A stretch of DNA of 64,000 nt from positions 44-64,043 of IMG/VR virus record IMGVR_UViG_3300048035_000179; one strand, given 5' to 3'. The notes beneath the pieces were generated by a model that ran no database searches, had not been told where the DNA came from, and saw only the letters and a list, made by a program, of their open reading frames with translations. Of the stretch, positions 219-64,000 are shown piece after piece (position 1 is the stretch's first letter; each line of letters opens with the position of its first letter). Position numbers and translations under genes: made by a program. This stretch comes from a virus. Its lineage: Duplodnaviria; Caudoviricetes.

Positions 219-374
219 ATGGCTAGAGGAGTACAGAAAGAAAAAAAATCCAATAGAATTACTTTTAGGATGACCCCAACTGAAATAGATAGGTTGAACA
301 AGGTCAGTAAATCATTAGAAATAAATGTTTCCCAAACAATAAGGAAAGCATTAAAAAACACATTCGAAATATGA
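219..374 (+). CDS. Ribbon-helix-helix (CopG/MobC-like) DNA-binding protein, 51 aa, not in the ORF track
   Basis: Hand translation MARGVQKEKKSNRITFRMTPTEIDRLNKVSKSLEINVSQTIRKALKNTFEI shows the RHH pattern: ITFR strand, helix, then N-V-S-Q-T-I-R helix. ATGA overlap with the next gene. Confidence 0.75.
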   Translation: MARGVQKEKKSNRITFRMTPTEIDRLNKVSKSLEINVSQTIRKALKNTFEI

Positions 375-1390
375 AAATGACAAGAATACCGACAGGTAAA
401 CTCACTTATGAGGAGTGGGTAGAATTAAGAAAGTCTTTAGTATACAAGGGTATGGTCGGAGGGTCTGATGCATCAACACTGCTAGGATTAAATCCATGGA
501 CTTCAAAAATTACAAGATGGAACCAATCTGTAGGGACTGCAAATATCAAGAATATTGATAACGAGGTTATGTTTCATGGTCGTCTATTAGAAGACTATGT
601 CGCTGATCTTTGGCAATATTGGACAGGAGACCCTATAGTAATGATAAATAATTATCAGTCTAAAAATAAACTTAGAAAATCTATAAGAAGAAACTCTATT
701 TTCATTAATGATGATTATCCATTTCTGTTTGCTAATATAGATAGACAAATTACTAAGCACGATGAAATTTCTGGTAAAGGAGTTTTAGAAATTAAAACTA
801 TTTCGGGATATAATGCTGATAAGTGGGATGGTGGAATTCCTCCTTATTACATCGCACAAATTCAATTATATATGTTGGTTTTAGGTTATGCCTATGGTCA
901 GTTTGCTTTTCTTAAAGACGGAAGACATATGGATGTATTTACTGTTGAGGCTAATAAAAACATCCAAGAAACAATTATAGAAGAGGCAAAGCAGTTTTAC
1001 CTAAGTGTGCAAATGGCTAGAGAAATTATAGAAAGTGGAAGACCACTTAATCAGAACGAAGCATACAAAATGGTATCTCACCTAGAACCAAGTGTAGAAG
1101 ACCAATACAAAGTCGATCTTGATCAATTTCTTTCAGAGAAGCATAAGGCAATGGTAAATAGAGTTAGGATAGATTCAGATGATGAGTTGTTAAAATTAAC
1201 AAGAGAATATATAGAGAGTAGAGATGAAGAGAAGGTTGCTAAAAACAACAAACAACTAGCAATGCAACAGATAAAACAAATCTTAATTCATCGAGGAGCA
1301 CAAGAGGTAGATTTTGGTGATAGTGGGAAGATTGTGTGGGGAAAGACATTTAATGTAAGGTTTAAAGAAAAAGAAGAAATTAATTTTTAA
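371..1390 (+). CDS. YqaJ-like viral recombinase / lambda-type exonuclease
   Basis: EEW..LR, GGSDAST.LGLNPW, GR.LE, FLFANIDR, LEIKT and YIAQIQLYM motifs. Confidence 0.92.
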   Translation: MKMTRIPTGKLTYEEWVELRKSLVYKGMVGGSDASTLLGLNPWTSKITRWNQSVGTANIKNIDNEVMFHGRLLEDYVADLWQYWTGDPIVMINNYQSKNKLRKSIRRNSIFINDDYPFLFANIDRQITKHDEISGKGVLEIKTISGYNADKWDGGIPPYYIAQIQLYMLVLGYAYGQFAFLKDGRHMDVFTVEANKNIQETIIEEAKQFYLSVQMAREIIESGRPLNQNEAYKMVSHLEPSVEDQYKVDLDQFLSEKHKAMVNRVRIDSDDELLKLTREYIESRDEEKVAKNNKQLAMQQIKQILIHRGAQEVDFGDSGKIVWGKTFNVRFKEKEEINF

Positions 1391-17377: not shown

Positions 17378-18874
17378 TTATGTTGTGTGTCCTTTACTCG
17401 TTATATATCCGATATTAGAGTGTTTTACCTCTAAATCATTGTCTCTAAAAGTCATGAAAACTTTTAAATATTGTCCTCTTAGTTTTGTCCCCCTCATTAA
17501 TCTATCCCCATATGTGGCGTTATCACTAACGTTAGGATCATTAACATCCCCAAACATATCTGAGTAATAAGTACCTTCTCTTTTTATATAGTCATCTGAT
17601 AGAAGATCACTATTCATTACCCAGTTATCTACCGTTTCAAATTTAGTTATTCTAGGTTTTGCGTTACCCTCAACTGCATGAGTCATAAAAACCTTTGGTT
17701 GTGACGGAGCCACATTCTCAATGTAACTAACTTGAGTAGGATATTTACCGTTGTAAAAATAGTTTTTATTATTTACATCATCATGAATAAATAACTCTCC
17801 ATTTACAAATGAAGCAAATGTTGTTTTGAATGTAGAATAGTACTCTGGTGTAAAAGAATATCTTGTAACCCATCTACTTGCATCTTGACTCCAGGCTATC
17901 GTTTGCTTCGCACCTACCTGTATTTCCTGAGTGACTTCTTCAACTTTTTTGTAAATTTTTACATTAGTTTGCCAATCATAATTACCTGTATTACTATTAG
18001 TGAAATTAAAATCTATTTGTGGATTAGACCCATGAGTTTCAGATATAGTTACCTCAACACCAGAATTAGAATACCCACTTGCTAAATCATTAACAGAAAA
18101 AATATTTGTATCTGCATAACCCATTGTAATATCTAAATCAGTCTCAGCAGTTGTAGCAGTGTCAGAGTCAACTATTTTGTATATAATACCACCACCAAAT
18201 ATATCACCTACAGAAACATTATCTGTTGTTGTCTGACGTCTAACTGCTCTAACTCTAAAATTATGATGTTTTTCTCTACCAAACTGTGCCCCTCCCGCAG
18301 AATTAGGATTAAAAGACATACTAAAAACTGGCGTTCTTGTCTGTAAATAACTAGATTCAAATGAAGCCCAGTAATTTTTTACAATAGCCCATTCATGATT
18401 TTTTCTAAGTTTTGAACCTCCGTTATTTGTAATAATAGGATCTAATACAGACATTAAATTATACAAAACGCTTAACTCATATACCGTAGGTAGATACCAA
18501 TCATTATATGTTACTCCACCTACAGTTCTTGAAATATCTGATGCGATCTTAGCAGCAGACGATTCGTGTTTTTCTTGATTTATTATTTGAGTAGTATTGT
18601 ATGCCCCATCTGAACTTGAAGCACCTGCATAATAATTTTCATTAGTTTCTTGAACACTTCCACGAACATTACTCCAATGAATGTTTTCTGATTTAACTGT
18701 TTGATAATCACTTCTTGATAAATTTTCCTCTGCAATAGAATGAGGATTACCTTCCTGCAAATCAACAATGTAAACTGTTTTATCAGTGGTAGTAGGAATC
18801 TCATTACTAATATCAAAAACTATCTTGATTTCGTCTCCTGGGTTAAAGTCTGTATTTATAGTGAAATTACTCAT
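17378..18874 (-). CDS. Tail stabilization (muzzle) protein, C-terminal part, with a DUF1566/Lcl_C domain
   Basis: DWYLPT..EL, YW.S and FRVRAVRR indicate DUF1566. These are followed by TIAWS...RWVTRYSF.PE and KREG.YY...LRGQY, typical of crAss-like muzzle C-termini. Confidence 0.65.
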   Translation of the reverse strand: MSNFTINTDFNPGDEIKIVFDISNEIPTTTDKTVYIVDLQEGNPHSIAEENLSRSDYQTVKSENIHWSNVRGSVQETNENYYAGASSSDGAYNTTQIINQEKHESSAAKIASDISRTVGGVTYNDWYLPTVYELSVLYNLMSVLDPIITNNGGSKLRKNHEWAIVKNYWASFESSYLQTRTPVFSMSFNPNSAGGAQFGREKHHNFRVRAVRRQTTTDNVSVGDIFGGGIIYKIVDSDTATTAETDLDITMGYADTNIFSVNDLASGYSNSGVEVTISETHGSNPQIDFNFTNSNTGNYDWQTNVKIYKKVEEVTQEIQVGAKQTIAWSQDASRWVTRYSFTPEYYSTFKTTFASFVNGELFIHDDVNNKNYFYNGKYPTQVSYIENVAPSQPKVFMTHAVEGNAKPRITKFETVDNWVMNSDLLSDDYIKREGTYYSDMFGDVNDPNVSDNATYGDRLMRGTKLRGQYLKVFMTFRDNDLEVKHSNIGYITSKGHTT

Positions 18875-51883: not shown

Positions 51884-52428
51884 GATTTTACTTGTTTTGG
51901 GGTGTCATATCTATATCTACGTTTGTCTATCTTAAACTCGTAGTACTTATTTCTCTCGTTTATCGTTACTAGGTTCCACTCCTTTATATCTTCCTTCTTA
52001 AAGTTTAGTAAAACATACCTTTGTCCCGATAAGAATAATACAAACAATACATAGTCAACATCTAACTTATCAATAGTAAACATGTTTACTTTGAGTGATC
52101 TCTCACAACCCTTAACATCAATCTTTTTGTCGTTAACCACTAAGTCAGCATCACTAACACCTTTCTCCTTAACAAAGGCTGAAGTTGTATAGTTTGTCCC
52201 TTTTAAATCAAAGTTATGACGAACTAGTAACTCCGCTAGTATACCCTTAAAGTCTGTGTAAAATTCGTTGTCGACTGGGTGGTCAAACAATATTGGGTGT
52301 TTGTATTCATATTTTCTAGACTTCCAATAAAGTTTCTTGTAATGATCTCTATTAGCCATAACTCTAGTATCAACATAAAGTCTAGCGTGATCAAATATAC
52401 ATTTTGGTATTTCAAATGGTCCCTCCAA
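51880..52428 (-). CDS. PD-(D/E)XK-like nuclease
   Basis: G.LAE...D.DL......IDVKG...D.DY.LF pattern. Confidence 0.6.
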   Translation of the reverse strand: MEGPFEIPKCIFDHARLYVDTRVMANRDHYKKLYWKSRKYEYKHPILFDHPVDNEFYTDFKGILAELLVRHNFDLKGTNYTTSAFVKEKGVSDADLVVNDKKIDVKGCERSLKVNMFTIDKLDVDYVLFVLFLSGQRYVLLNFKKEDIKEWNLVTINERNKYYEFKIDKRRYRYDTPKQVKS

Positions 52429-53011
52429 TAATCTTTCCTAATAAATCATCCTGTCTCATCACGTAATAATCAACTCCCTCGATTTTGTTTAGAAAAGCAT
52501 TTCTTTCATGAAACCTTACCTTATCTCCACTAACCAAACCCAGTTCATCCTTGCCCTTTAGTGGTAGACTTATATGCCTTACATAACCCTCGGTCTCACT
52601 CTTCTTAGGTACGCCTACATATATAGACCCTATCTTCTCCTCAACCTCATCAGGTTCCACTAATACATGATTGGAAATAGCAGTAAGACTTCCGCTCCTC
52701 ACAAAACAAAAGCATTCTTCTAAATCGACAAGGTAGACGTCACTCTCTCCAGTTACAAGATTATCAGGCTGTACAGTCAGATAATTAAAATAGGCGAGAT
52801 CGCCATCTTGCAACTCCTGTTTGATCCAATCCCCTCTTGTGTTTTTACACCACTCTCCTCTAGGCAAAGCCACGACCACTCCACATATTGTAACGTGGTG
52901 TTCTGGATTCCATGTAACGTCTAAATATAGTTTTTCTCCAGACGAAAATTCAACCTCATCGTTGTATTTCTTCGAAATCTTAACCGCTATTTTTTGACCA
53001 ATCATATTCAT
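52412..53011 (-). CDS. Tandem GroES-like co-chaperonin
   Basis: Two GroES-like units: G.VVALP...GDL.YF and NHVLVEP...GSIYV...GDKVRF...IEGVDYYVMRQDDLLG. Confidence 0.8.
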   Translation of the reverse strand: MNMIGQKIAVKISKKYNDEVEFSSGEKLYLDVTWNPEHHVTICGVVVALPRGEWCKNTRGDWIKQELQDGDLAYFNYLTVQPDNLVTGESDVYLVDLEECFCFVRSGSLTAISNHVLVEPDEVEEKIGSIYVGVPKKSETEGYVRHISLPLKGKDELGLVSGDKVRFHERNAFLNKIEGVDYYVMRQDDLLGKIIGGTI

Positions 53012-53215: not shown

Positions 53216-53643
53216 CATGATCACCCCGAATTGAATTTAAGAGGTTTTAAGAGACTCTAAAATAATCGGCTTTATAATACCATTATTATTTCGTGAAAGT
53301 TTCTTAAATTTGCTCAGAATGATTGTAGATGGCTTTTTGTGGTAATACATATATATACTACCCGTTGACGCAAAAAGGGAAGTGGATTTTGGCAAGTGGG
53401 TAGGTCGGCATTTAGGAGTTGTAAAACGAAATCGGATTCTCATTAGGAATCCACACAAACCACATAACCTATTGACATTCAGTCTTTTGCATAGTATCTC
53501 ACGTTGTTTTGTGTAGATTTTGCTACCAGGTAACACTAAAAAAGGGAAACGATGCAACAAACTAAACGAACAAAGAAAAATTTCCTCCTCTTTAAAGAGA
53601 TGGAGTTATACAATGAACGAAACCAACAACAAACAATTGACAC

Positions 53644-54030
53644 GTGAAAGTAGGACAAAAGTTAAGAGAATTATTTAGTCATCAGAAAGCAATACAAAAG
53701 TATCTTAAGAGTATTGACAATGACTTCACACCTAAAACAATTTACATCTTTTTAGGATGTAGTATAATAGAATCAGAATGTAAATCAGACTTCAGTTACT
53801 ACGAAATAAAATCAGTGTTAAGGTTACTAGATAAAATGGAACTTGTCAAGTCAACTAACCCTCATCAATTCTACAGAGAACACAAGAAACTTTTGAACGA
53901 AGGTTTTATAGAACGTCAAACAAAACGAGCCAAGTACACCAAACAACAATTCAACGTGACTATCTATGGTCGTATGCAGTTAAGACGTATCTATAACTAT
54001 CTTATACGTGAGTTGTATACTTCCCTATAG
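53644..54030 (+). CDS. Winged-HTH regulator (MarR/PadR-like)
   Basis: KKLLNEGFIER...FNVTIYGR wing motif. GTG start. Confidence 0.6.
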   Translation: MKVGQKLRELFSHQKAIQKYLKSIDNDFTPKTIYIFLGCSIIESECKSDFSYYEIKSVLRLLDKMELVKSTNPHQFYREHKKLLNEGFIERQTKRAKYTKQQFNVTIYGRMQLRRIYNYLIRELYTSL

Positions 54031-54222
54031 TAATTTAATAAGGTCACCCCAAAACCATATGTAAAGTAAACGCCAAAAACTATACACAATACAATTGTTA
54101 TGTAAAGATAATCAACGTTTTACATCAGATAAATTATGATCGATACAAGTCTATAAATTACCCCCCAAAAAAAATCTCGGTCGACCAAAAAATGTGTGCA
54201 GTAAATGTGCAACAATGCATTT

Positions 54223-54230
54223 TATGTTTG
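54223..54230 (+). promoter_or_regulatory. Bacteroidota -7 box (TAnnTTTG), near-leaderless
   Basis: TATGTTTG, 4 nt before ATG 54235. Confidence 0.6.
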
Positions 54231-54234
54231 CAGT

Positions 54235-54396
54235 ATGAAAAAATATAATTGGACAAACTTATCAGTACAACAGAAAATTAATGTAAAACAACATGCAATC
54301 AATTTGTATGGTAAAAGATGGCACACATCCAAACCAAACTTCTGTAGCAAATTAAACTATTTAGAAATCTATAGCATACTACATAGTTATACCTAA
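54235..54396 (+). CDS. Small early hypothetical protein
   Basis: MKKYNWTNLS..., directly after the -7 box. Confidence 0.5.
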   Translation: MKKYNWTNLSVQQKINVKQHAINLYGKRWHTSKPNFCSKLNYLEIYSILHSYT

Positions 54397-54527
54397 CGAA
54401 ACCAAAGTCGAACTTTTTTAAAACTATATAGTCTTATATAGAATGTTCTTCCCTCTATAGATATTTAACAATCGTTCAAGGTCACCCCAAACTAAAATCA
54501 TTCTGTATGACATTTTTATGCACATAT

Positions 54528-54558
54528 TTTGTGGATAACTAAATTTGTTGTATATTGC
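54528..54558 (+). promoter_or_regulatory. Early promoter (Bacteroidota sigma-A type)
   Basis: TTTG (54528) N19 TATATTGC (54551), plus a perfect TAAATTTG at 54540-54547. Confidence 0.6.
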
Positions 54559-54630
54559 CAACTGAACGAGCGTTCATAACGACATATCGAACGCTAACAA
54601 ACTGAAAATCAATTATTTAAACTAAAAATT

Positions 54631-54903
54631 ATGATGCTTAACAAAATTAACCTTTCCACAATTGATGACAATACGCTTGACCAAGCGATGAATATTTTTG
54701 ATTGTATTCCTTTTACTATTCTAGACCATTACTCAAAGAAATTTAATATAGGTACACTTGATTTATGTGTAGATGTTTTATTATCTAATAAAGAATGGCA
54801 TTTGAGACTTTCACACCCTATGACATATACAACTCTTGAAGATATAATTCACGACTTTATTGGTTTAGCAAATAGAGACGAACACTTTGTTCCTAGGATT
54901 TAA
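54631..54903 (+). CDS. Early hypothetical protein
   Basis: A-rich leader. C-terminal HDFIGL.N.D.HFVPR. Confidence 0.65.
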   Translation: MMLNKINLSTIDDNTLDQAMNIFDCIPFTILDHYSKKFNIGTLDLCVDVLLSNKEWHLRLSHPMTYTTLEDIIHDFIGLANRDEHFVPRI

Positions 54904-54953
54904 GGCTAACTGATGAGGATTTAATATCCGAAACGCTGTGAAGCGTCTTAGTC
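54904..54953 (+). ncRNA. Hammerhead ribozyme, type I
   Basis: Stem I GGCTAA/TTAGTC; core CTGATGA; stem II GGAT-TTAAT-ATCC; GAAA; stem III ACGCT-GTGA-AGCGT; GUC cleavage triplet (cut after C54947). Entirely intergenic. Confidence 0.92.
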
Positions 54954-54957
54954 AATA

Positions 54958-55926
54958 ATGACAAATAATTTAAACTATTACACTATGTATGTAAACTCAA
55001 ATGGTCAATTAACAGACATTCACGCTGACCACGTGAATCCAACTCAAGCACAACAACTACTTCACAAATTCAATTTAGATTGGGAGGTAAAAAAATTCCC
55101 TCTTCAGTTTGAGACTCCATCTTCATTTAGCGATGACTCTAGACTTAACCAAAAGCACGATAGTGGTTTTTATGGTGTTGTAAGAACAGACAACAACGAT
55201 TGCTTTGGAGCATTCACAGACCAATACGAAACTTTTCAGAACTCTGAACTTGCTGAACTTGTGTTAGAAATTGCTGATGCTATTGGTCAACCTATCTCAA
55301 ATGGTGCAGAATTCAAAGGTGGTAGAAAAGTGATGTTGCAAGTTGATTTGAATCCCGTTAAAATTGGTGACGATACAATCACTAGAAAAGCAACTGCTAT
55401 CAATTCTCACGATGGCTCTACTTCATTACGATGGGGAACAACGGGAACAACTATTTCTTGTGCAAATCAATTCAGTGCAATCAGCAAAGAATTAGAGAAC
55501 TCTGTACGTCACACACGTAATATGCGAGATGCTATCTCTAGGTCTCTACGTATTCTTGAGAATATGGAAAAAGCAGATAAGTCTTTATTTGAGATATTCT
55601 CTTCTATGACTGATTACAAGGTCACCCAAAAACAAGTGAACGAGACAATCAATTTAATTACTGGTGTTGATGTCAATATGGGTGAAACCAAAGCACGTGA
55701 GCAGTATTCTACTAGAAAGTTAAATCAGACTCAAGACTTGGTGCAATCTATCGTTAAAGAGATGTCTTACAAGGGCGATACACTATGGGGATTGTTTAGT
55801 GGTGTAACACACTACACAACTCACAAAGGTGGCTCAGATAGAACTAGAGAAGAATCCAAGTATGTTGGAGGTCTTCAGAGACTCGACCAAAAGGTCTTCA
55901 ACAAGTTTGCAACTTTAGTATCATAA
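54958..55926 (+). CDS. DUF932 family phage/plasmid protein (start may be ATG 54985)
   Basis: LDWEV.K.PL, VRTD, Y...QN.E, GGRKV, NSHDGS.S, CANQ and TLWGLF.GVT.YTTH motifs. Confidence 0.9.
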   Translation: MTNNLNYYTMYVNSNGQLTDIHADHVNPTQAQQLLHKFNLDWEVKKFPLQFETPSSFSDDSRLNQKHDSGFYGVVRTDNNDCFGAFTDQYETFQNSELAELVLEIADAIGQPISNGAEFKGGRKVMLQVDLNPVKIGDDTITRKATAINSHDGSTSLRWGTTGTTISCANQFSAISKELENSVRHTRNMRDAISRSLRILENMEKADKSLFEIFSSMTDYKVTQKQVNETINLITGVDVNMGETKAREQYSTRKLNQTQDLVQSIVKEMSYKGDTLWGLFSGVTHYTTHKGGSDRTREESKYVGGLQRLDQKVFNKFATLVS

Positions 55927-55938
55927 GCAAACTAACCA

Positions 55939-55996
55939 ATCGCTAATGCCTTGCACAGAAATGTGCGAGGTTTTGGTGGTAAAGGGCAATAATGCC
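55939..55996 (+). ncRNA. Structured intergenic RNA (long GNRA-capped hairpin plus a small hairpin)
   Basis: ATCGCTAA-T-GCCTTGCACA-GAAA-TGTGCGAGGT-T-TTGGTGGT forms 18 bp with 5 G-U pairs, followed by GGCA-ATAA-TGCC. Confidence 0.55.
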
Positions 55997-56017
55997 ATAT
56001 CATTTAAACTATATAAT

Positions 56018-56152
56018 ATGAATTTAAAATTAATGATTCAAAAATCAATTATCTACACATTGACTTCATTGGTCGCAATTACTTGGACAATGCTTGTCTT
56101 TCATTTACTAACCAAAGGCATTGATGCGAACGCATCATTTGGTCTTTATTAA
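56018..56152 (+). CDS. Small membrane protein
   Basis: Start reassigned to the junction-motif ATG. One hydrophobic helix. Confidence 0.6.
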   Translation: MNLKLMIQKSIIYTLTSLVAITWTMLVFHLLTKGIDANASFGLY

Positions 56153-56163
56153 AACTATATAAT

Positions 56164-56607
56164 ATGAAACAGAATAGTAAAGAAATTACACTTTGGGCGA
56201 GACGATGCTCAGTAACACTACAAGGAATGAATGCAGGTTATGTATGGGATGATGGATGTTATTATTGTGTTGATGATGATGAAATTGCTAATGCTGAATT
56301 TAGAAAAGACAGAGAGCATATCATTAGTTACATTCCAAAAAATTTATCTGATATTGATTTCTTCGATGATTATGATGAACACGATGAGGAAAACTATCTG
56401 TCAGCAATAGATAGAGTAAAACAAAACAAGGATACTGATGAAGACTTAAAAACTCTCTCTTATTTATTTGGCTTACACTACTACACAGAATGGATGGATG
56501 ATGATGATATTCAGTATGTCGAGATAGATGGTGTAATCTATAATGAAGAAGATAAACAATTTATTATGGCGATGGAATTGAATAAGGTCGCCCAAAATTT
56601 AGGATAG
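56164..56607 (+). CDS. Acidic early hypothetical protein
   Basis: ARRCSVT..GMN.GY...YYTEW motif. Junction-motif start. Confidence 0.75.
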   Translation: MKQNSKEITLWARRCSVTLQGMNAGYVWDDGCYYCVDDDEIANAEFRKDREHIISYIPKNLSDIDFFDDYDEHDEENYLSAIDRVKQNKDTDEDLKTLSYLFGLHYYTEWMDDDDIQYVEIDGVIYNEEDKQFIMAMELNKVAQNLG

Positions 56608-56645
56608 TATGGTACTTAGGGAGCGTTCGATTCCTCCCTATCCAC
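56602..56645 (+). ncRNA. tRNA-like minihelix (acceptor stem plus T-arm only)
   Basis: GGATAG/CTATCC stem enclosing GGAG-C-G-TTCGATT-C-CTCC with a canonical T-loop. No D or anticodon arm. Confidence 0.4.
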
Positions 56646-56679
56646 AATGCAATATTGCAGATTATTTAAACTAAACAAT

Positions 56680-57048
56680 ATGGGATACAACACAGATTTT
56701 AGAGGAACGTTAGAATTCAACAAGCCTCTTACAGAAGAAATGATCAAAACTTATGAATCATTTAAAGAGATGAGACACGAAGATGGCTATCAGCCAAATG
56801 GAAAGCCTTCAATATGGTTACAATGGGAAATCGTAGAAGATGATGGAAAGCATTATCTAGAATGGGATGGAGGAGAAAAGTTTTACAAGTATGTAGAATG
56901 GCTTGAGTACGTAATTAAGTACATCTTCAAAGGATGGGGATTATTACTGAATGGTCGAATAGAATGGAGAGGTGAAGAGTGGGATGATGTTGGCTATATC
57001 GAGGTCGAAAATAACAAAGTTAAAAGTGGAGATTTACAATTTCAATAA
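56680..57048 (+). CDS. Conserved phage early protein
   Basis: MGYNTDFRG...P..W.QW...WDGGEKFY.YVEWL...LNG.I.W.GEE..D.G. Start reassigned to 56680. Confidence 0.75.
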   Translation: MGYNTDFRGTLEFNKPLTEEMIKTYESFKEMRHEDGYQPNGKPSIWLQWEIVEDDGKHYLEWDGGEKFYKYVEWLEYVIKYIFKGWGLLLNGRIEWRGEEWDDVGYIEVENNKVKSGDLQFQ

Positions 57049-57059
57049 AACTATATAAG

Positions 57060-57635
57060 ATGGCAAATAACTGCAACAATTGGATAAGTTTTGTCGGTAG
57101 CAAAACTTCCCTTAAGAGACTAGAAAAGAAACTTAAAACTTATGACAAATCTAAATACTTTACAGAGTGGAGCGAGTATGTTATAGGAATAGGTGAACTT
57201 GATGGAGGAGAAGGTTTCAAATTGAAATATGGAACTGACCATAATGTATATTATATGTATGGAACTAGATGGTTTGATTTCTTCATTGAGGAAGAGGATA
57301 ACCTTTTAAGAGTATATGGGGATTCTGCTTGGTCGCCCCCAATCAAATTTGTAGAGGAGGTTTGTAAAAAATTTAAACTCAAGGCTGAAATGGATTACGA
57401 GGAGTGTGGATGTGACTTTGGAGGTCGAGCATTTTTTGATGAACAAGGAATTATCGAACGAAAAGATTATTCATATGATCATTGGAGATACATAGATAAT
57501 TATGAGGGATGGGAAGATGAATTATCTGATAGATTTGCTGACGAGGATTTGTCTTTGGAAGAGGCTTTGGAAGAACACCCTTATGCAAAAAAAGAAGAAA
57601 TAGAAAAAATATATAATAAATCAAAAACTATATAA
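57060..57635 (+). CDS. DUF1281/YubB ferredoxin-like domain protein
   Basis: MAN.C.N, GT.W, DSAWSPP and YEE.GCDF.G motifs. Confidence 0.75.
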   Translation: MANNCNNWISFVGSKTSLKRLEKKLKTYDKSKYFTEWSEYVIGIGELDGGEGFKLKYGTDHNVYYMYGTRWFDFFIEEEDNLLRVYGDSAWSPPIKFVEEVCKKFKLKAEMDYEECGCDFGGRAFFDEQGIIERKDYSYDHWRYIDNYEGWEDELSDRFADEDLSLEEALEEHPYAKKEEIEKIYNKSKTI

Positions 57636-57636
57636 T

Positions 57637-57921
57637 ATGAAAAACAATAAACTTATAGCAGAATTTATGGGGATGACTTATGGAGATTCTTGGTATCGCA
57701 AATCAATGAGATACAACGTTTCTTGGGATTGGCTGATGCCCGTAGTTGAAAAGATTGAAAGCCTTGGTTATGAATTTACAATAGTTGAGAATAGATGTAA
57801 AGTGAGCAACAATACTGACCATTCTGTAGAAGAGTTATTTCATATAGAAACAATAGGTAGTAAGTTTAAAACTACATACGATGCCGTAGTAGAATTTATT
57901 AAAAACTATAAAAACAAATAA
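57637..57921 (+). CDS. IAEFMG...SWDWLMPVVEKIE family protein, copy 1
   Basis: Conserved blocks shared with the next gene. Confidence 0.75.
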   Translation: MKNNKLIAEFMGMTYGDSWYRKSMRYNVSWDWLMPVVEKIESLGYEFTIVENRCKVSNNTDHSVEELFHIETIGSKFKTTYDAVVEFIKNYKNK

Positions 57922-57922
57922 G

Positions 57923-58432
57923 ATGAATAGCAATAACCTTATAGCAGAATTTATGGGAATAAATGTTGTCACTATTGATAATGTTAGAAAAAACAAGAAT
58001 CCCTATATCTCATCAGCAGATGGATACCTTGAAGACGATTTAAAATACCATTGCTCTTGGGATTGGCTGATGCCTGTAGTTGAGAAAATAGAAAGCGATG
58101 AAAGGTATGATGTTAATATACTACAACATGGCACTTGTATTTTCGATAATCAAAGAGAGATAGTTAACAATATTGCCAACATTTCATTTGATAAAAAAAT
58201 TGAGCATACATATGATGCAGTATTACATTTCATCAAAGATTATAATACAAAAAAGATAGACTATTTATATCTAGTCATTTCATCTATTATGACAAGATAT
58301 GGTAGTTTAAATAATCTCAAATGTCAACTAAGAGAGGATTCCGATGTCGCATATGTCAACATTGCTGATGATACAAATATGGTAGTAAATGAACACGAAG
58401 TAGAAGATATAATTAATCAATTAATAAGATAA
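57923..58432 (+). CDS. IAEFMG...SWDWLMPVVEKIE family protein, copy 2, with a C-terminal extension
   Basis: Paralog of 57637-57921. Confidence 0.75.
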   Translation: MNSNNLIAEFMGINVVTIDNVRKNKNPYISSADGYLEDDLKYHCSWDWLMPVVEKIESDERYDVNILQHGTCIFDNQREIVNNIANISFDKKIEHTYDAVLHFIKDYNTKKIDYLYLVISSIMTRYGSLNNLKCQLREDSDVAYVNIADDTNMVVNEHEVEDIINQLIR

Positions 58433-58443
58433 AACTATATAAG

Positions 58444-58665
58444 ATGGCAAGATTTATTTTAGATGTTATGACAGAAGACATAATAAAAGTATTGGATGTA
58501 ATTGAAAGAGATCATTTTCTTTCAGACAAGGTCACCTCAATAAGATGTATTGATGAGACAAATGATAATCAGTTTTATTCTTGGGATGAAGACACATCAC
58601 CAATGATGAATGTGCTGAGTAAAAAACAATTAAAAACCGACAGAGATATTCTGTCAAAATATTAA
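58444..58665 (+). CDS. Early hypothetical protein
   Basis: Bounded by junction motifs on both sides. Confidence 0.65.
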   Translation: MARFILDVMTEDIIKVLDVIERDHFLSDKVTSIRCIDETNDNQFYSWDEDTSPMMNVLSKKQLKTDRDILSKY

Positions 58666-58676
58666 AACTATATAAT

Positions 58677-59075
58677 ATGAAAGTAAATTTAGAAGGTAGA
58701 TATACATCTACATATGGTTTTGTTGGAAACAACGGATTGGAAAAACACGCTGAAATGACGTTCGGTAAAAATTGGGAAGCCGAAGATGACGTTGAACAAA
58801 TACAACAACTTTGTGACTATATTGAATATGAAAGATACCAAGTTGATTGTATTGAAACTAGAGATGAAGAAGATATAATAGTAAGGGAAGTAGATAATTG
58901 GAAAGAACTCAAAAAATCATTTTCTGATTTGCAAATTGCATTAGAAATAAACAAGAGCAACTTAATGCAACTTGATTGGTTTAATGATTTCGTTGACTTT
59001 GTTCAAGAATATGACGACAACATATATAATAAGGCTCGTGAGTGGGCAGATAATCAAGAAGCAAAAAAAGAATGA
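58677..59075 (+). CDS. Early hypothetical protein
   Basis: Junction-motif start. Confidence 0.65.
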   Translation: MKVNLEGRYTSTYGFVGNNGLEKHAEMTFGKNWEAEDDVEQIQQLCDYIEYERYQVDCIETRDEEDIIVREVDNWKELKKSFSDLQIALEINKSNLMQLDWFNDFVDFVQEYDDNIYNKAREWADNQEAKKE

Positions 59076-59218
59076 TTATTCTGGTGGTAAATAAAAATAG
59101 ATATCTCATCAATGATAAGTCAGTAGTCGCTGATGAGGTATGTTCAAAGATACTTAAACAATATCCTTCTGATGCTGAAGTATACTTTGACGAAGTAAAA
59201 CTTACTGACGTTATTTAA
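59072..59218 (+). CDS. Small hypothetical protein (48 aa), not in the ORF track
   Basis: MIILVVNKNRYLINDK...KLTDVI. ATGA overlap, and its stop is the TAA of the junction motif. Confidence 0.6.
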   Translation: MIILVVNKNRYLINDKSVVADEVCSKILKQYPSDAEVYFDEVKLTDVI

Positions 59219-59229
59219 AACTATATAAT

Positions 59230-59508
59230 ATGATTACAAATGAAATTTTTGAGTCTTACAGAGAAGACCAAGTTAAACAAAAAGAAGCAAAAGGATTTTT
59301 AGAAAGTCAAGGATACTTTGTAGGTAATTTATGGCACGTAGATGACGTGATGAATGATTACAAGTGCAGTAGTGAGGATGCACAAGACATACTTTATTCT
59401 GCCCTTACCAATAACGCTACAATGGAAAGGATATGGTTTGCAATTCAATATCACGCTGAGAATGAATATAATCTTAAAAGGAAAAGTGATGATAGTGAAA
59501 AAAATTAA
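59230..59508 (+). CDS. Early hypothetical protein
   Basis: Junction-motif start. LW.VDDV...A..IL motif. Confidence 0.7.
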   Translation: MITNEIFESYREDQVKQKEAKGFLESQGYFVGNLWHVDDVMNDYKCSSEDAQDILYSALTNNATMERIWFAIQYHAENEYNLKRKSDDSEKN

Positions 59509-59836
59509 AACATATAAGTATAAAGAACTAGATGATCTTGCAAAAGTTGATGTGAAGTTTTGGCTTGATCAAAACCCTATAGACTACGAGAGGGAGGATG
59601 GAACCATTGTAATTGAGTATTTCTCAGATATGGATGAGTGGAGCGTTAACGAACATTGCGAGTTGAACGATTATTTCTTCACTAAAAAAGGTCAGCCTAT
59701 ACATAACATAGTAGTGCAAAATAAATATGTCGGTCAAGGAAGAAGAGAACGTCAAGCAGTTAATAACAACAAAATTATGATTTTTTCTTTTATAGGATTT
59801 TTGGCTTGTGTGATTTATTTGATACTTACAAGATGA
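59489..59836 (+). CDS. Hypothetical protein with a C-terminal TM helix
   Basis: Start reassigned to ATG 59489. Y.Y.EL...AK and N.Y.F...G segments, hydrophobic C-terminus. Confidence 0.6.
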   Translation: MIVKKIKTYKYKELDDLAKVDVKFWLDQNPIDYEREDGTIVIEYFSDMDEWSVNEHCELNDYFFTKKGQPIHNIVVQNKYVGQGRRERQAVNNNKIMIFSFIGFLACVIYLILTR

Positions 59837-59885
59837 GAAGAAAAAATAGTTTAGGAGAAAACGCATTCACGTTCATGCTACTTTC

Positions 59886-60287
59886 TTGGATGTGTTTTAT
59901 AATAATCAAAGTGGTAATAAATATATTATAATGAAAGATAAAACTTATATTTCCGTTGTTAAGGCTAGTTTCTACGCACAACTCTTGTTAGAGGCTCTTG
60001 ACGATTTAGAACAAACTCCAATATTTAGACAATCTCTAAAGTTTAAAGTTAAACAAGCACAATTAGAGTTAGAAAAACAAAACTCAAGATTCATTGAGAC
60101 AATGTTTAAAAATGATGAAGAATTTTTATCAAATCTTCAGAAGCATACTGATGAGTTAATTGATAGATTATCAAAACTTGGGATAGATGAATTACCATTA
60201 GTAAATAAAATACTAGAAGAGTATGAAAAAGATTCAGATCATTGGAAAGAAAATTTAACAATTCAATTTACAAAACTAAATACATAG
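59886..60287 (+). CDS. Hypothetical helical protein (start probably ATG 59931)
   Basis: QLLLEALDDL...F.QSLK motif. Confidence 0.65.
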   Translation: MDVFYNNQSGNKYIIMKDKTYISVVKASFYAQLLLEALDDLEQTPIFRQSLKFKVKQAQLELEKQNSRFIETMFKNDEEFLSNLQKHTDELIDRLSKLGIDELPLVNKILEEYEKDSDHWKENLTIQFTKLNT

Positions 60288-60290
60288 AAT

Positions 60291-60656
60291 ATGTCAGAAA
60301 TAAAAATGGAAACCTTTTTAAAGGAAAACGTGATGGAGGTAGTATCAAAGAAATACAAGTATGCTCCAGAGTCTCTAAAATATTTAAGAGACATTAAAGA
60401 ACAGTTATTAAGTGTTATTTCTACAGTAGATGAAACTATAGAATATATGAATAAGATTCAAAAAGTTAAAGACCAAAACAATGGAGTAGTTTATCCTTTT
60501 GATGAGGGAGATGATTATTGGGTTATTGAAAATGGAAAGGCAGTCTGGTCGTGTTGGGATGATATAAGCGAAGAATACCACAGAGACAATCCTAACAGAG
60601 AATACTTTATGAGTGAAGAAAGTGCAAACCAACAACTTAAAAATTTTCAAAAATGA
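60291..60656 (+). CDS. Hypothetical protein
   Basis: YPFDEGDDYW.IE...WSCWD..SEE.H segment. Confidence 0.65.
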   Translation: MSEIKMETFLKENVMEVVSKKYKYAPESLKYLRDIKEQLLSVISTVDETIEYMNKIQKVKDQNNGVVYPFDEGDDYWVIENGKAVWSCWDDISEEYHRDNPNREYFMSEESANQQLKNFQK

Positions 60657-60811
60657 TCAGAGATAAAAAATTATTCTTTAAAATAAAAGAAATGTTTCCT
60701 GATGCTCCTGATGAGTTTATTAGAAATATGTATCACAACATAAATGGGAAAAAATTTTTATGGAAATTAACTGAAGGAATGAACGATGATTCAAACTCAG
60801 ATGTAAAATAA
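60653..60811 (+). CDS. Small hypothetical protein (52 aa), not in the ORF track
   Basis: MIRDKKLFFKIKEMFPDAPDEF..., with an ATGA overlap. Confidence 0.55.
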   Translation: MIRDKKLFFKIKEMFPDAPDEFIRNMYHNINGKKFLWKLTEGMNDDSNSDVK

Positions 60812-60884
60812 TTTGGTAAGACAATAATAAATGTTATTTTAGCAGTGTCAGACTTATTATCAAACTAAAAAAAAAACTGAAATA

Positions 60885-61196
60885 ATGAACGAAAGTAAAA
60901 TTAAATTACTGCAAGAGCAGTTCGGTTACAAACTTTACCAAGACTTAATTGACTCTGGTGAAGCATGGAAAATTGGTGGTGAGACTACTAAAAAATGTAA
61001 AGACTTACTAATTAAAGGAGTCTGTTTCCTTCCACACAAATCGGTTTATATAAATCTATTTGTATCAATTCCCTCAAGACATCAAGTAAAAAATACGGAT
61101 TTTGGCTCGTTATATCGCTCAAAAAAATATTGGGCAGATGAATGGAATATGTCTACGGAGATTGGTAAAAACATAATGAAAAGTGTAACAATTTAA
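60885..61196 (+). CDS. Hypothetical phage protein
   Basis: Q.LIDSG.AWK..G...G.C.LP...IPSR motif. Confidence 0.65.
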   Translation: MNESKIKLLQEQFGYKLYQDLIDSGEAWKIGGETTKKCKDLLIKGVCFLPHKSVYINLFVSIPSRHQVKNTDFGSLYRSKKYWADEWNMSTEIGKNIMKSVTI

Positions 61197-61209
61197 AAAA
61201 GACAAACCA

Positions 61210-61761
61210 ATGACAAATAATATGAAACTACAGTTAGACGCTGTGGTAAAGACAATTAATGCTGTAACAGGAGCAGATGTAACTGCTAAAGACAGACACA
61301 GAGATAATGTAGATGCTAGATTAATTTTCTACAAAGTAGCAAGAGATATATTTAATATTTCATATACTAAAATAGGCACATACTTAGGTAAGCATCACGC
61401 AACTGTTTTACATGGACTTAAACAGTTTGATAATATTTATGATCAAGATAAAGGATTACGAAATTGTTATGAAGCAGTTATTAATTTATTAGATCAAACC
61501 GATCTTGACGAATACATTGTAGAAAGCAAAGATTTAGTAGTTAAATATGTTCAAGAAAAAAATGCACACCTTTTGTTGAAGCAAAAACATAAAGTTTTTA
61601 ATGAAAAAATAGAGGATAAGGCTTATGAATATATAACAAATATGATTTCTGAATTTCGTTCCACAACACTTGAAAGAATTTTGCTTGACAGGAGTGTTCC
61701 ACATAAATTATCAAATATTCTTGTAGAAGCCTTGGAAAGCAGAGATAAAACAGTATATTGA
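61210..61761 (+). CDS. DnaA C-terminal (domain IV)-like HTH protein
   Basis: R.R..VDAR.IF.......SYTKIG.YLGKHHATVLHG. Confidence 0.8.
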   Translation: MTNNMKLQLDAVVKTINAVTGADVTAKDRHRDNVDARLIFYKVARDIFNISYTKIGTYLGKHHATVLHGLKQFDNIYDQDKGLRNCYEAVINLLDQTDLDEYIVESKDLVVKYVQEKNAHLLLKQKHKVFNEKIEDKAYEYITNMISEFRSTTLERILLDRSVPHKLSNILVEALESRDKTVY

Positions 61762-61784
61762 ATAACTAATTGAACCATTGACTT

Positions 61785-62009
61785 ATGAAGACTCATTCTA
61801 AATACAAAACTATAGCCTTAAATTTATTACAAATTAAGGAAATACCTACAACTGAAGTATGTGAACATATATACGGTTGTAAATCAAAAAAGAGTACTTT
61901 AAATCAAAAAAAGACTGGTCTTTCCCCTTTACAATTCAGTGAATCCACTAGGATTATTGAGTTCTACGGAAACCTAGCAGAAAAAATAAATAACATTTTA
62001 GATGAGTAG
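61785..62009 (+). CDS. Small HTH-like regulator
   Basis: TTEVCEHIYG...STLNQKKTG helix-turn-helix-like pattern. Confidence 0.5.
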   Translation: MKTHSKYKTIALNLLQIKEIPTTEVCEHIYGCKSKKSTLNQKKTGLSPLQFSESTRIIEFYGNLAEKINNILDE

Positions 62010-62053
62010 TGTATGAACACTTGTGCAGATTCCCCTAGGGACTGCACAAATCG

Positions 62054-62083
62054 CCCTTTCTGATCAATAGAGAGGGTTTTTTT
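62054..62083 (+). terminator. Intrinsic terminator ending the early operon
   Basis: CCCTTTCT-GATCAAT-AGAGAGGG-TTTTTTT, preceded by the hairpin TTGTGCAG...CTGCACAA (62021-62049). Confidence 0.75.
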
Positions 62084-62143
62084 ACCCTACATATCAAAAC
62101 TTATTTATTCAACTGATTTTTTTAACTTTTAAATCATTTAACG

Positions 62144-63103
62144 ATGAAGAAAAATTCTTTTTTGTATTTATTACAAGACATAACGCAACAACTAAAAGAT
62201 GGTGACATTCTTAATTATGGGAAGAGATTCTCAAAGAAAACTATAAACTCTTATGAGCAAGTTTACAACACCATGTCATCCTTCAAATATAATTTCAACT
62301 TAGACTCTGTTGACTTAAATAATGTGAGCAGTAGGAGAGAGAGACTTAAAGTTTCTAGACAGATGCAAAGATATGTTAACGACTATCTTAATATCCTGCA
62401 AGAAAAAAGGTATCATCCTAATACAAGGAAGTCTCATCTTAAAACTATAAGGACTACCTTAAAGAAAGGAGAGAAGTACTATGGCTATATGTTTCCTAAG
62501 ATAGAAAGTATGAGAGAGTTGAAGACGGAGGTGGTCACCCTCAATCCGTATCAAGTAAACCTAATTCACACTACACCTCCAAAGAAAAGCCTAAAAGATA
62601 TGTGGTACTATACCAGGATTGCTTTATACTCATGTATGAGAATAAGTGATCTTATAAATTTTGAATGTACAATGGATGGTAATGTTGTTACGATATTAAC
62701 TAAGAAAGGAATGGGAGCATTATCTACATTTTACTTACCCGATGATGTATGTGAATTTATAAAAGAAAAAGGCTCACCTAAATTTTCAAAAAATCATTTT
62801 AGAAGTTTACTAAAAGAACTCCTACAAGAGTACTCAGAGTTTTGGAAAAAGAAAACGGTATATAAATATGACCACGAAGGTAATCCTACACAGGAAACAA
62901 GTTATTTATGGGAGTTAATTACACCTCATAAACTAAGAAGTAGTGGAATTACTTTTCATCTTACAAATGGACTAACTGAGTTAGATGTTCGGAGAATTAG
63001 TGGACACGCCAACAATTCTTCTGCGTTTTACAGATACGTCAATGCAAGTGATACAAAATCTTTGAAACAACAAAAAGAAAATTCGGTTGTTAAAATTAGT
63101 TAA
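62144..63103 (+). CDS. Tyrosine recombinase/integrase
   Basis: Catalytic residues R (MRISDL), K (TKK), HxxR (HKLR), H (SGH) and Y (FYRY). Confidence 0.9.
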   Translation: MKKNSFLYLLQDITQQLKDGDILNYGKRFSKKTINSYEQVYNTMSSFKYNFNLDSVDLNNVSSRRERLKVSRQMQRYVNDYLNILQEKRYHPNTRKSHLKTIRTTLKKGEKYYGYMFPKIESMRELKTEVVTLNPYQVNLIHTTPPKKSLKDMWYYTRIALYSCMRISDLINFECTMDGNVVTILTKKGMGALSTFYLPDDVCEFIKEKGSPKFSKNHFRSLLKELLQEYSEFWKKKTVYKYDHEGNPTQETSYLWELITPHKLRSSGITFHLTNGLTELDVRRISGHANNSSAFYRYVNASDTKSLKQQKENSVVKIS

Positions 63104-63141
63104 CTGTTAATATATAGTTAATAAGTCTGACATGAACGCTT

Positions 63142-63456
63142 GTGCAGACTAATATTTTGTTTTACATTCGAGTAAATAAACCACGACATGATAAATACCA
63201 ATATGAAATGGTCAGATTTGACTACGAAAATAGCGAGATTATTCATGATCGTAAAAGGTTTTCACTGAGAGATTTTAAAATTTTTCTGTTAACACATTAC
63301 GAAGAAGTTTGTATGGAGCGCAGAATCACAGGATGGATTTTTGATTGGGAATCTATATTCTTTCACACACGAAAGTATTATATAGTAAATTTTTATTTAA
63401 ACAATTTAATAGATTATAACAATGGCAAAACTAAAAAGAAAACTAAAGACTACTAA
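63142..63456 (+). CDS. Hypothetical protein (start probably 63188 region or 63208)
   Basis: ORF between the integrase and the SSAP. The 5' part overlaps a probable promoter. Confidence 0.5.
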   Translation: MQTNILFYIRVNKPRHDKYQYEMVRFDYENSEIIHDRKRFSLRDFKIFLLTHYEEVCMERRITGWIFDWESIFFHTRKYYIVNFYLNNLIDYNNGKTKKKTKDY

Positions 63457-63958
63457 AATCTCTGGAGGAAAAGAAATTGTTCCTTGGGTGGAGAGATTAA
63501 ATTACTTCAATGATTACTTCAGACCTGAAGGATATGTTTTAAAAACAGACATTATAGAAATGAACGATAGTGTTATCGTTATGCAAGGTCAAGTGCTAAA
63601 CTCTGATGGAAGACTTGTTTCTGATGGTATAGCATTTAAAAAATCTAATGAACATTTTGCTTATCAAAAGTGTCAGTCTGGTGCATTAAACAGAGCCTTA
63701 TTTATTTTAGGTATTGTTAATAGTGGTGAAGATACTATAATGGATGAAGATGAGGCAAAAGAACTTACAAGAAATAAACTTCAAGATGCGTCAGAGGCTT
63801 ATGCTAATATGTTAGCACATATTCCTGTTGACTATACTGTTGTTGAATCAAGACTTCCCTTTTATAAAAATCAATTGACAAGTCAACAAATGACTGAATT
63901 AAAAAAGTTGATTAATGTTGAAAAGGCAAAAAAAGCAGTAGCAAAGGCTACTAAATAA
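63422..63958 (+). CDS. Rad52/Sak-like single-strand annealing protein
   Basis: V..VERL.YF...G.A...C.S.AL.RAL..LGI pattern. Lies two genes before the YqaJ exonuclease across the genome junction. Confidence 0.65.
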   Translation: MAKLKRKLKTTKISGGKEIVPWVERLNYFNDYFRPEGYVLKTDIIEMNDSVIVMQGQVLNSDGRLVSDGIAFKKSNEHFAYQKCQSGALNRALFILGIVNSGEDTIMDEDEAKELTRNKLQDASEAYANMLAHIPVDYTVVESRLPFYKNQLTSQQMTELKKLINVEKAKKAVAKATK

Positions 63959-64000
63959 AAACCATAGGGGAAGGATTTCATAACCAACAACAAGAATAAG
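63833..64000. repeat. Terminal direct repeat, right copy
   Basis: Matches 1-168 with a single A/G difference. Confidence 0.95.

Follow-up and report, generated by a model that had tools for sequence, protein, structure and literature searches.

A repeated 17-nucleotide linker, a candidate start signal lacking a Shine-Dalgarno sequence, coincides with gene-exchange breakpoints in a marine phage

A 17-nucleotide junction, TAAAACTATATAAKATG, links small early genes of unlike content in the tailed phage held as IMG/VR virus record IMGVR_UViG_3300048035_000179, of which we analyzed a stretch of 64,000 nucleotides (hereafter the window; nearly the whole of the 64,043-bp record, which CheckV rates as complete). 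The junction, which we call the linker, recurs in a fixed register with the ATG of the gene that follows it, is restricted to a variable block of the genome, and coincides with the points at which related genomes part. With slightly better than even confidence, we propose that the linker is at once a start signal that works without a Shine-Dalgarno (SD) sequence and a patch of short homology at which crossovers exchange genes.

The linker has five exact matches in the window (copies 2, 3, 5, 6, and 7 in Table 1), all on the plus strand, and none of 100 shuffled sequences contained any match. These are the positions named by an earlier annotation of the window (hereafter the original prediction), and the one-mismatch copies at 56004 (TTAAAC...) and 57623 (AAAAAC...) and the degenerate copies at 56666 and 57901 that it listed are likewise all present. 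When up to two mismatches are allowed, nine matches appear against 0.20 expected; the two extra ones lie within coding sequence (57867 on the plus strand, 39842 on the minus strand), away from gene starts. Every one of the seven copies terminates in a start codon. In the numbering of Baez et al. 2019, which sets the A of the ATG to 0, the first TAA of all five exact copies, at −14, is the stop of a long upstream frame, so the claim that the linker fuses the upstream stop to the downstream start in these copies is borne out. At the 57623 copy, it is the second TAA (−4), within TATAAT, that ends the upstream gene, and the 56004 copy is preceded by a noncoding spacer, its TAA not serving as a stop. 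The further claim that the genes so delimited are unrelated holds in general and fails for one pair of paralogues, 57637-57921 and 57923-58432. The C terminus of this paralogue family (…AVVEFIKN…) itself encodes linker-like DNA, TTATTAAAAACTAT.

The shorter sequence AACTATATA occurs at five further sites in the window (4358 and 54423 on the plus strand; 10061, 46157, and 63118 on the minus strand), none of which has an ATG at the linker spacing. The full linker is therefore confined to 56004-59232, in agreement with the claim that it stands at no gene start outside this region. The site at 54423 belongs to an ATG-less copy starting at 54419, also previously noted, which sits within the inverted repeat CTATATA-GTCT-TATATAG; the RNA fold of this repeat is no better than that of shuffled sequences (z-score −0.22). 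The linker has A at −13/−12 to −10 and at −3 and T at −6 in all copies, contains no GGAGG (SD), and shows neither dyad symmetry nor inverted-repeat arms in the 17-mer.

The same element marks a whole clade. We collected relatives from IMG/VR with the DUF932 protein (13 loci) and with an alignment of the first core gene (42 loci), and we clustered 47 nonredundant loci together with the window, 48 in all; the 183-amino-acid (aa) DnaA-HTH protein alone found no related loci. A closer clade shares the linker, with the consensus ATT(T/A)AAACTATATAATATG, always on the coding strand, always abutting an ATG, and with few exceptions located from the DUF932 gene to the core, a hypervariable block in which gene number, content, and order differ in every lineage and families recur in different neighborhoods. 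Eighteen related loci yielded 53 distinct strict junctions (an ATG at the same spacing was required for inclusion), all on the plus strand; AACTATATA matches on the minus strand were few. The upstream frame ends inside the linker in 35 of these 53 junctions (first TAA, 19; second TAA, 16) and 18 to 27 nucleotides upstream in 4, and the other 14 follow a noncoding spacer without an upstream frame. The TAA box is therefore kept whether or not it is used as a stop, and the two most-used stops, −14 and −4, are out of frame with each other.

Distant relatives do without the strict linker and carry a looser box, AATT(T/A)AAACT, followed by about 7 nucleotides of free sequence and the ATG, so that the CTATATAAT part, invariant in the closer clade, is free in them. 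The 103 starts of the variable block show a bimodal distribution: 34 have at most one mismatch to the 12-mer and 59 have at least five, compared with 2 of 126 core starts with at most one mismatch. Genes downstream of linkers fall into many clusters, and the same gene families occur both with and without a linker. A scan of IMG/VR with the 16-mer AAAACTATATAATATG was uninformative on distribution, the matches listed being mostly single chance copies in unrelated AT-rich contigs. Among these matches is a stretch of an unrelated 66-kb viral contig (L115, 1345-1445, minus strand) with six head-to-tail 17-nucleotide units containing the 16-mer. A narrow search of the literature, which is no proof of absence from print, found no repeated start-linked motif in Flavobacterium or Cellulophaga phages.

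The original prediction offered the linker as a crossover site for gene gain, loss, and shuffling and called for related genomes to be compared. As a pattern, this claim is supported: gene order varies, and many breakpoints fall at the linker; that recombination at the linker is the cause of those breakpoints is something we infer. In the variable regions of 18 loci, we counted each distinct end of a BLAST block. Sixty of 240 block ends fall within −16 to +8 of 64 linker ATGs, where 3.3% would be expected, and 33 of 240 fall at 109 other gene starts (5.6% expected). In three comparisons (loci L009/L019, window/L008, and window/L011), nucleotide similarity passes through the linker and stops at or just after the ATG, and L011 and L013 are 99.6% identical over 4.5 kb up to a linker ATG, beyond which they are unalignable. 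One 288-bp cassette is 97.2% identical in L027 and L033 against a median background of 76.7%; its left end lies in the first codons after one linker and its right end at the ATG of the next. Another cassette reaches 91-93% identity against a background of 71-74%. Relative to L026, 1.4 kb is inserted in the window, with the 58430 linker forming the left boundary, and the same short form is found in a contig of sequencing run X23.

Contigs assembled from sequencing runs (three marine DNA runs from three studies and one RNA-library run, X23) diverge from the window at 55996, 56150, 56167, 56663/56668, 57072, 57620-57627, 58681, 59218, and 59250, all of which are junctions of the array; uncovered parts in X3, X4, and X23 are not evidence of absence. 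A contig of X4 joins 57651 to 57938 over 19 shared nucleotides, deleting the first tandem paralogue. A contig of X23 has one joint that goes back 1127 nucleotides (56029 to 54903, with a side of 35), as an excised mini-circle might give, but it could equally reflect a tandem arrangement as in L026. The joints 55999 to 56678, 56021 to 56150, 56022 to 58661, and 56169 to 58661 were not counted as deletions, because their shorter side, 20-30 nucleotides, is about the linker itself. As a separate observation, L008 carries at 4725-4745 a partial tandem duplication of the linker, AAACTATAAAACTATATAATATG, resembling the scar of an imprecise joining.

The composition of the linker matches what is known of initiation in the likely host group. 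In the part of their work drawn on here, Baez et al. (2019, PMC6847099) report that Flavobacterium johnsoniae initiation regions are enriched in A at −14 to −11, that A at −12 and −13 is the most critical in reporter tests, that A at −3 and −6 is positive, and that low structure helps. The original prediction had pointed to A at −3 and −12/−13, and this fit stands when set against the reported positions: the linker has the A-run (−13/−12 to −10), A at −3, no SD, and low predicted structure. Three 61-nucleotide junction RNAs fold at −1.7 to −4.1 kcal/mol (z-scores −0.13 to +1.47), no better than shuffled sequences. The bias extends across the phage, for 50 of its other genes have A in 60-66% of cases at −14 to −11 and in 72% at −3, again with no SD. 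These properties argue for the linker as an SD-less translation initiation region of the Flavobacteriia type and, to that extent, for the translational element that had been predicted.

The host promoter carries a −7 consensus, TAHHTTTG, located 4-5 nucleotides from the transcription start, according to the relevant part of PMC6847099. On the plus strand, the last two occurrences of this box are at 54540, between genes, and at 54693, inside coding sequence; from 54694 to 64000 (9.3 kb), the plus strand has none, compared with about 5 expected by our own arithmetic from the window-wide density (68 per 128 kb of single strand), and the linker itself has none. The 54540 box would be the early promoter, and because the plus strand lacks a host-type −7 box after 54693, the array is probably transcribed in one polycistronic early RNA. 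The depth of the RNA-library run X23 is not readable as expression, and its 693-nucleotide contig over 56004 and 56150 is no proof of polycistronic RNA.

Candidate hammerhead ribozymes between early genes of the window and the collected loci number 63 on the plus strand and 0 on the minus strand. RNAalifold gave 13 copies a three-stem fold of 15 pairs, 11 with compensatory changes, and the candidate of the window, at 54905-54952, has CUGAUGA and GAAA in its core, a UH site for cleavage, and three covariation-backed stems. The minimum free energy fold of 54895-54965 lacked the hammerhead fold; the alignment fold showed it. Rfam at gathering thresholds had no matches in the window, with RAGATH-1-hammerhead scoring 13.3 bits in the window and 25.0 bits in L051 (gathering threshold, 56.3) and Hammerhead_3 scoring 20.1 (48.5), and an Rfam E-value search of 53500-60500 returned only chance-level snoRNA or plasmid matches. 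Other candidates lie at L026 783/1006, L010 8241, L034 5748/6417, L043 393/1059/1444, and L047 630/954/1335, among others. Predicted cleavage after 54947 would leave a 10-nucleotide leader on the DUF932 mRNA. Hammerheads flanking single genes in phage and prophage operons have already been described, in the part of PMC3088659 that concerns them. Together, the distribution of the −7 box and the hammerheads between genes point to one long early RNA in which each cistron would need its own SD-less start signal. The segment 55927-56025, just before and including the first linker, folds at −30.6 kcal/mol (z-score −4.17; 0 of 200 shuffled sequences fold as well), and its stem-loops at 55939-55996 may be an attenuator, a processing site, or an RNA-stabilizing element.

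The phage also encodes candidate enzymes for exchange on short homology. The Rad52/YqaJ pair invoked by the original prediction is supported, the YqaJ exonuclease as a clear Pfam match and the Rad52-like protein as a predicted fold with low TM-scores. The AlphaFold2 model of the latter (178 aa) has a mean predicted local distance difference test (pLDDT) score of 81.9. In a Foldseek search of the PDB, every listed match with an E value of at most 1e-3 was Rad52 or Mgm101 (E from 7e-5), and the model matches Rad52, Mgm101, and Sak rings with TM-scores of 0.30-0.39. The 178-aa protein has no Pfam family, and an ESM Atlas search with it returned only unnamed viral clusters (PF27148 in part). RusA-like and SSB-like genes are encoded as well. 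Phage Rad52-like recombinases drive mosaicism on short, diverged homology, as set out in the part of De Paepe et al. (2014, PMC3945230) relevant here.

Our proposal is that, within a single long early transcript, the junction serves as a compact linker that joins stop to start. At the RNA level, it would present an unstructured AU-rich stretch in which the A-run at −13 to −10 and the A at −3 promote SD-less initiation, and, with TAAs at −14 (variants −13 to −15) and −4, the upstream gene would end inside the linker and ribosomes would restart at once. Because the same 16-25 nucleotides precede many unrelated genes, phage DNAs would share a patch of identity at a harmless place. Crossovers at this patch, probably made by the Rad52-like annealing protein and YqaJ, would insert, delete, replace, and reorder single-gene cassettes, and an arriving gene would keep a working start signal, by which the linker would stay uniform.

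Several points weigh against this double role. Over 1320 junction pairs with unrelated flanks, the exact identity tract has a median of 16 nucleotides and reaches at least 23 in 42 pairs; the median lies below the 23-27 bp quoted for the minimal efficient pairing segment of Red-beta in the part of PMC3945230 consulted. BLAST extends blocks through a shared motif, which inflates the linker count of 60 of 240, and the loci in that count are related and their gene calls naive. Breakpoints at gene borders are also expected from selection alone. In two loci that are 99.87% alike (L061/L062), the difference is a crossover in tandem paralogues, inside the 3' end of the coding sequence, and the L011/L020 and L008/L011 blocks have their right ends in coding sequence. 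Order inversions affect 6 of 87 family pairs in the strict clade versus 2 of 354 in the distant clade, a small contrast between counts that are not independent. On the translational side, the A favored at −6 is T in all copies, and CTATATAAT, constant in the clade, is free in distant relatives, so known initiation determinants fail to explain it; the invariant CTATATAAT half leaves room for a binding factor. Finally, all four sequencing runs were compared as contigs, which cannot show RNA ends, so that the translation role and the polycistrony of the array are deductions.

Some of these points suit another reading, which we consider unlikely: the linker would be a translation element only, spread by duplication and kept by selection, with breakpoints there because recombinants that cut genes were lost. 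Its fit to the initiation determinants is the same as that of the double role, and it would explain why identity tracts are mostly shorter than 20 nucleotides, why coding sequence holds the L061/L062 event and also the right-hand limits of two further blocks, and why starts without the motif are also enriched in block ends. It sits poorly with the roughly threefold greater number of block ends per linker junction than per other start (60 per 64 versus 33 per 109), though BLAST extension favors linkers. Nine bases that are free in distant relatives are invariant across unrelated genes, with few intermediates, and homogenization or some other constraint is therefore needed; moreover, families change order in the strict clade.

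We hold it rather improbable that the linker is the site of a regulon, bound by a phage protein that switches the early accessory set, whether on RNA, like a RegA-type repressor lying over the AUG, or on DNA, like the stoperators of mycobacteriophage L5. In systems of the stoperator type, one asymmetric site, present at the early promoter and all over the genome, is bound by the repressor of a temperate phage; stoperators are also mentioned in the part of Pope et al. used below. A regulon would account for conservation far beyond initiation needs, the strict one-strand orientation, the few intermediates, and the ATG-less copy in a conserved inverted repeat about 110 nucleotides upstream of the candidate early promoter box, with a weak "transcriptional regulator" match adjoining it (53644-54030; phrog_11046, 4.2e-4). 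The linker, however, is tied to a type of junction and not to a gene, the same families occurring with and without it, and a DNA operator needs no fixed register with an ATG. Signs of lysogeny are also absent: among 185,579 species genomes scanned, the one match was a 2.5-kb contig, with no prophage copies. Domain and PHROG searches of the window proteins gave no RNA-binding candidate and, beyond the weak match just named, no repressor. We are similarly doubtful of a stronger form of the double role, a dedicated cassette-capture system of SD-less phages in which a phage factor (Rad52-like/YqaJ or another protein) would recognize the invariant CTATATAAT half and so target exchange or co-switch translation of the accessory set. 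If true, the phage would own a programmable slot array for ORFan genes at 17 nucleotides, far below normal homology needs.

It is very improbable that the TAAACT of the linker is a −10-like promoter element from which each cassette is transcribed separately, starting at or near the A of the ATG, as a leaderless or very short-leader mRNA. TAnnnT does fit the most conserved positions of the sigma-70 −10 hexamer, and the spacing of about 7 nucleotides from TAAACT to the ATG is constant even where the 7-mer differs. The host-type box, however, is absent from the linker and from the whole plus strand after 54693, the approximately 48 open reading frames (ORFs) scanned yielded neither a sigma factor nor an RNA polymerase, and hammerhead candidates precede boxes of the TAAACT kind in relatives, an arrangement that puts the box within the RNA. 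Furthermore, 87% of predicted F. johnsoniae transcripts have leaders longer than 10 nucleotides (PMC6847099, in the part cited above). For phage phi14:2, the portion of the report on early transcription describes no common motif upstream of early transcripts (10.1101/2020.03.07.982082). The 2663-aa ORF at 6949-14943 (minus strand) was considered as a virion RNA polymerase reading the linker and dropped: it belongs to no Pfam family, has no sequence relative in the PDB, and matches one unannotated PHROG, and a regular expression for DFDxD-type motifs found none in it.

The integron-like version of the original prediction, in which the tyrosine recombinase at 62144-63103 would recombine linkers site specifically to capture and excise cassettes, is scarcely credible: single-ORF cassettes bounded by a repeated site and a tyrosine-recombinase-like gene 3 kb downstream speak for it, but the 17-mer has no inverted-repeat arms and fold energies no better than shuffles, and thus none of the folding imperfect inverted repeats of integrons; the recombinase family occurs in 40 of the 48 clustered loci, including distant relatives that lack the strict linker and keep their gene order, so that its presence is not tied to the sites; its Pfam score is below the gathering cut-off; and breakpoints vary by several nucleotides (the partial duplication at L008 4725 included), so homology-driven exchange fits better than exchange at a fixed position.

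The genome that carries the linker is divided between its strands. Structural genes occupy the minus strand from about 6 to 48 kb of the window; among them are genes for portal, large terminase, tail fibers, and a capsid protein of SU10 type, as well as one for a protein (17378-18874, near the 2663-aa ORF) whose C-terminal domain is of the crAss "muzzle" family (PF25729, 3.2e-7). Early and replication genes occupy the plus strand from about 54.2 kb across the record end to about 5.9 kb and include DUF932, DnaA-HTH, tyrosine-recombinase-like, YqaJ exonuclease, primase-helicase, RusA-like, and SSB-like genes. No close DNA relatives were found among 50,697 deposited phages, and the DUF932 protein matches actinophage proteins only, at less than 30% identity. 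The nearest isolates by terminase protein are the Flavobacterium "elemo" podophages (31.5% identity) and Cellulophaga phages, and the sequencing runs that contain the phage DNA are seawater or marine metagenomes (small-share runs X13-X24, except X23, were left out of this statement); a host in the Flavobacteriia is therefore likely. The C-terminal half of a 198-aa protein encoded at 52412-53011 on the minus strand contains a Cpn10/GroES domain (PF00166, 2.3e-8).

Features of the early region are collected in Table 1. This region holds a second repeat, AAGGTCRCCYMAA, which contains GGTNACC and occurs in five exact copies (54040, 54478, 55618, 56584, and 58528, all on the plus strand), two of them intergenic and three in frame within unrelated genes; at up to one mismatch, it has 8 matches against 0.41 expected, and it is also found in the relatives L062, L010, and L051. 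The plus-strand spacer at 56608-56665 is 92-95% conserved in L008 and L018, is also kept in L009, and holds a sequence like a tRNA T-arm, GGGAGCGTTCGATTCCTCCC, and a perfect 12-bp palindrome, TGCAATATTGCA. ARAGORN found no tRNA in the window; the distant relative L051 has a real tRNA at 4620-4693, before its early genes.

Table 1. Coordinates of features in and around the early region (positions in the window)
Feature	Position	Strand	Remarks
ATG-less linker copy TAAAACTATATAG in inverted repeat	54419..54441	+	Repeat kept in relatives (L008 270, L011 2466, L012, L013, L014)
Candidate host-type −7 promoter box TAAATTTG	54540..54547	+	Fits TAHHTTTG; in spacer before first early gene
Hammerhead-type ribozyme candidate	54905..54952	+	Just upstream of DUF932 gene; core CUGAUGAG...CGAAAC...GUC; predicted cleavage after C54947
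DUF932 gene	54958..55926	+	Left anchor of variable block; Pfam PF06067 4.1e-20
Two predicted stem-loops before first linker	55939..55996	+	Long 55939-55980, short 55985-55996; from fold
Linker copy 1, one mismatch (TTTAAAC form)	56004..56020	+	After noncoding spacer; starts 44-aa ORF 56018-56152
Linker copy 2, exact	56150..56166	+	Upstream stop −14; starts 147-aa ORF 56164-56607
Degenerate linker TTTAAACTAAACAATATG	56666..56682	+	After 58-nucleotide conserved spacer; starts 122-aa ORF 56680-57048 (phrog_38666)
Linker copy 3, exact	57046..57062	+	Upstream stop −14; starts 191-aa ORF 57060-57635 with DUF1281_C domain
Linker copy 4, one mismatch	57623..57639	+	Upstream stop at second TAA (−4); starts 94-aa ORF 57637-57921
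Degenerate linker	57901..57925	+	Before paralogous 169-aa ORF 57923-58432
Linker copy 5, exact	58430..58446	+	Upstream stop −14; starts 73-aa ORF 58444-58665
Linker copy 6, exact	58663..58679	+	Upstream stop −14; starts 132-aa ORF 58677-59075
48-aa ORF	59072-59218	+	ATGA overlap with preceding ORF 58677-59075
Linker copy 7, exact	59216..59232	+	Upstream stop −14; starts 92-aa ORF 59230-59508
First conserved core gene	59931..60287	+	Right anchor of variable block; family in 43 loci
Tyrosine-recombinase-like gene	62144..63103	+	Pfam Phage_integrase 25.7 bits (cut-off 27.1); phrog_1 6.9e-16
Candidate single-strand annealing protein	63422..63958	+	Rad52-like predicted fold; AlphaFold2 and Foldseek
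YqaJ-type recombination exonuclease	371..1390	+	Pfam PF09588 1.8e-22; phrog_434 1.6e-55; after 63958 once record ends are joined

How phages gain, lose, and reorder small genes that carry no functional annotation is a long-standing question, and to our knowledge, only a few cases tie this shuffling to a defined sequence, for example, the promoter-early stem-loops (PeSLs) of T4-type phages and the boundary sequences of lambdoid phages. The linker is a very compact case from an abundant marine phage group, in which one 17-nucleotide sequence marks both a candidate start signal and the points of exchange, and the evidence spans assembled genomes and contigs of independent seawater samples. It also indicates how genes within long operons may be initiated in hosts that ignore the SD sequence, and it might be of use as a portable intercistronic linker for expression in Flavobacteriia.

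The linker can be compared with four systems, each taken from the relevant parts of its source. The SD-less initiation regions of F. johnsoniae (PMC6847099) likewise lack an SD and a second AUG in the motif, carry adenines at −13 to −10 and at −3, and have little structure; they are a loose compositional bias, whereas the linker is an exact 12- to 17-mer reused verbatim, with T at −6. The Rad52-like system of De Paepe et al. (PMC3945230) resembles the present one in its pairing of an exonuclease with an annealing protein and in its mosaic blocks of high identity, set in a diverged background with short conserved patches on either side; in the present phage, these patches mostly measure 16-19 nucleotides, below the 23-27 bp quoted there, and the recombinase here is known from a predicted fold.

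The closest kind of element is the start-associated sequences (SAS) of Cluster K mycobacteriophages (Pope et al. 2011, PMC3203893). These are short asymmetric repeats, many per genome and in one orientation, that lie only in the nonstructural half, a few nucleotides upstream of the ATG starts of different gene families; the upstream stop is sometimes inside the repeat, the repeat overlaps the position of the host ribosome-binding signal, and some copies have extra inverted repeats upstream. The linker, too, is an asymmetric repeat of one orientation and many copies, directly upstream of starts of different families and in the nonstructural part only; upstream stops can likewise fall within it, it covers the place of the host signal for ribosome binding, and inverted repeats precede some copies. 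SAS hold the SD core (AGGAG), whereas the linker holds the SD-less A-run and A at −3 of the Bacteroidia, and SAS lie 3-7 bp upstream of the start, whereas the linker abuts the ATG at a fixed distance. Gene-exchange breakpoints were measured at the linker, and the sections of PMC3203893 on SAS make no such claim for them. TAAAACTATATAAKATG shows no sequence likeness to the Cluster K consensus GGGATAGGAGCCC given there, and we regard the two as analogous, not homologous.

In evolutionary role, the closest counterpart is the PeSLs (Arbiol et al. 2010, PMC2839356). A PeSL is about 100 bp long, with a sigma-70-like promoter, a terminator stem-loop, and an SD; the linker spans 17-25 nucleotides, has no host-type promoter box, no terminator-like stem-loop, and no structure of its own (upstream hairpins, at 55939-55996, occur only at the spacer-type junction of 56004), and fuses stop to start in one transcript. 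PeSL mini-circles were shown by experiment, whereas the linker is known here from contigs. PeSLs are repeated regulatory sequences that stand before small ORFan genes in hyperplastic regions, where they bound the insertions, deletions, and replacements between relatives, and they have been proposed as recombination substrates that carry expression signals along with the gene. The linker likewise bounds insertions, deletions, and replacements in a hyperplastic region.

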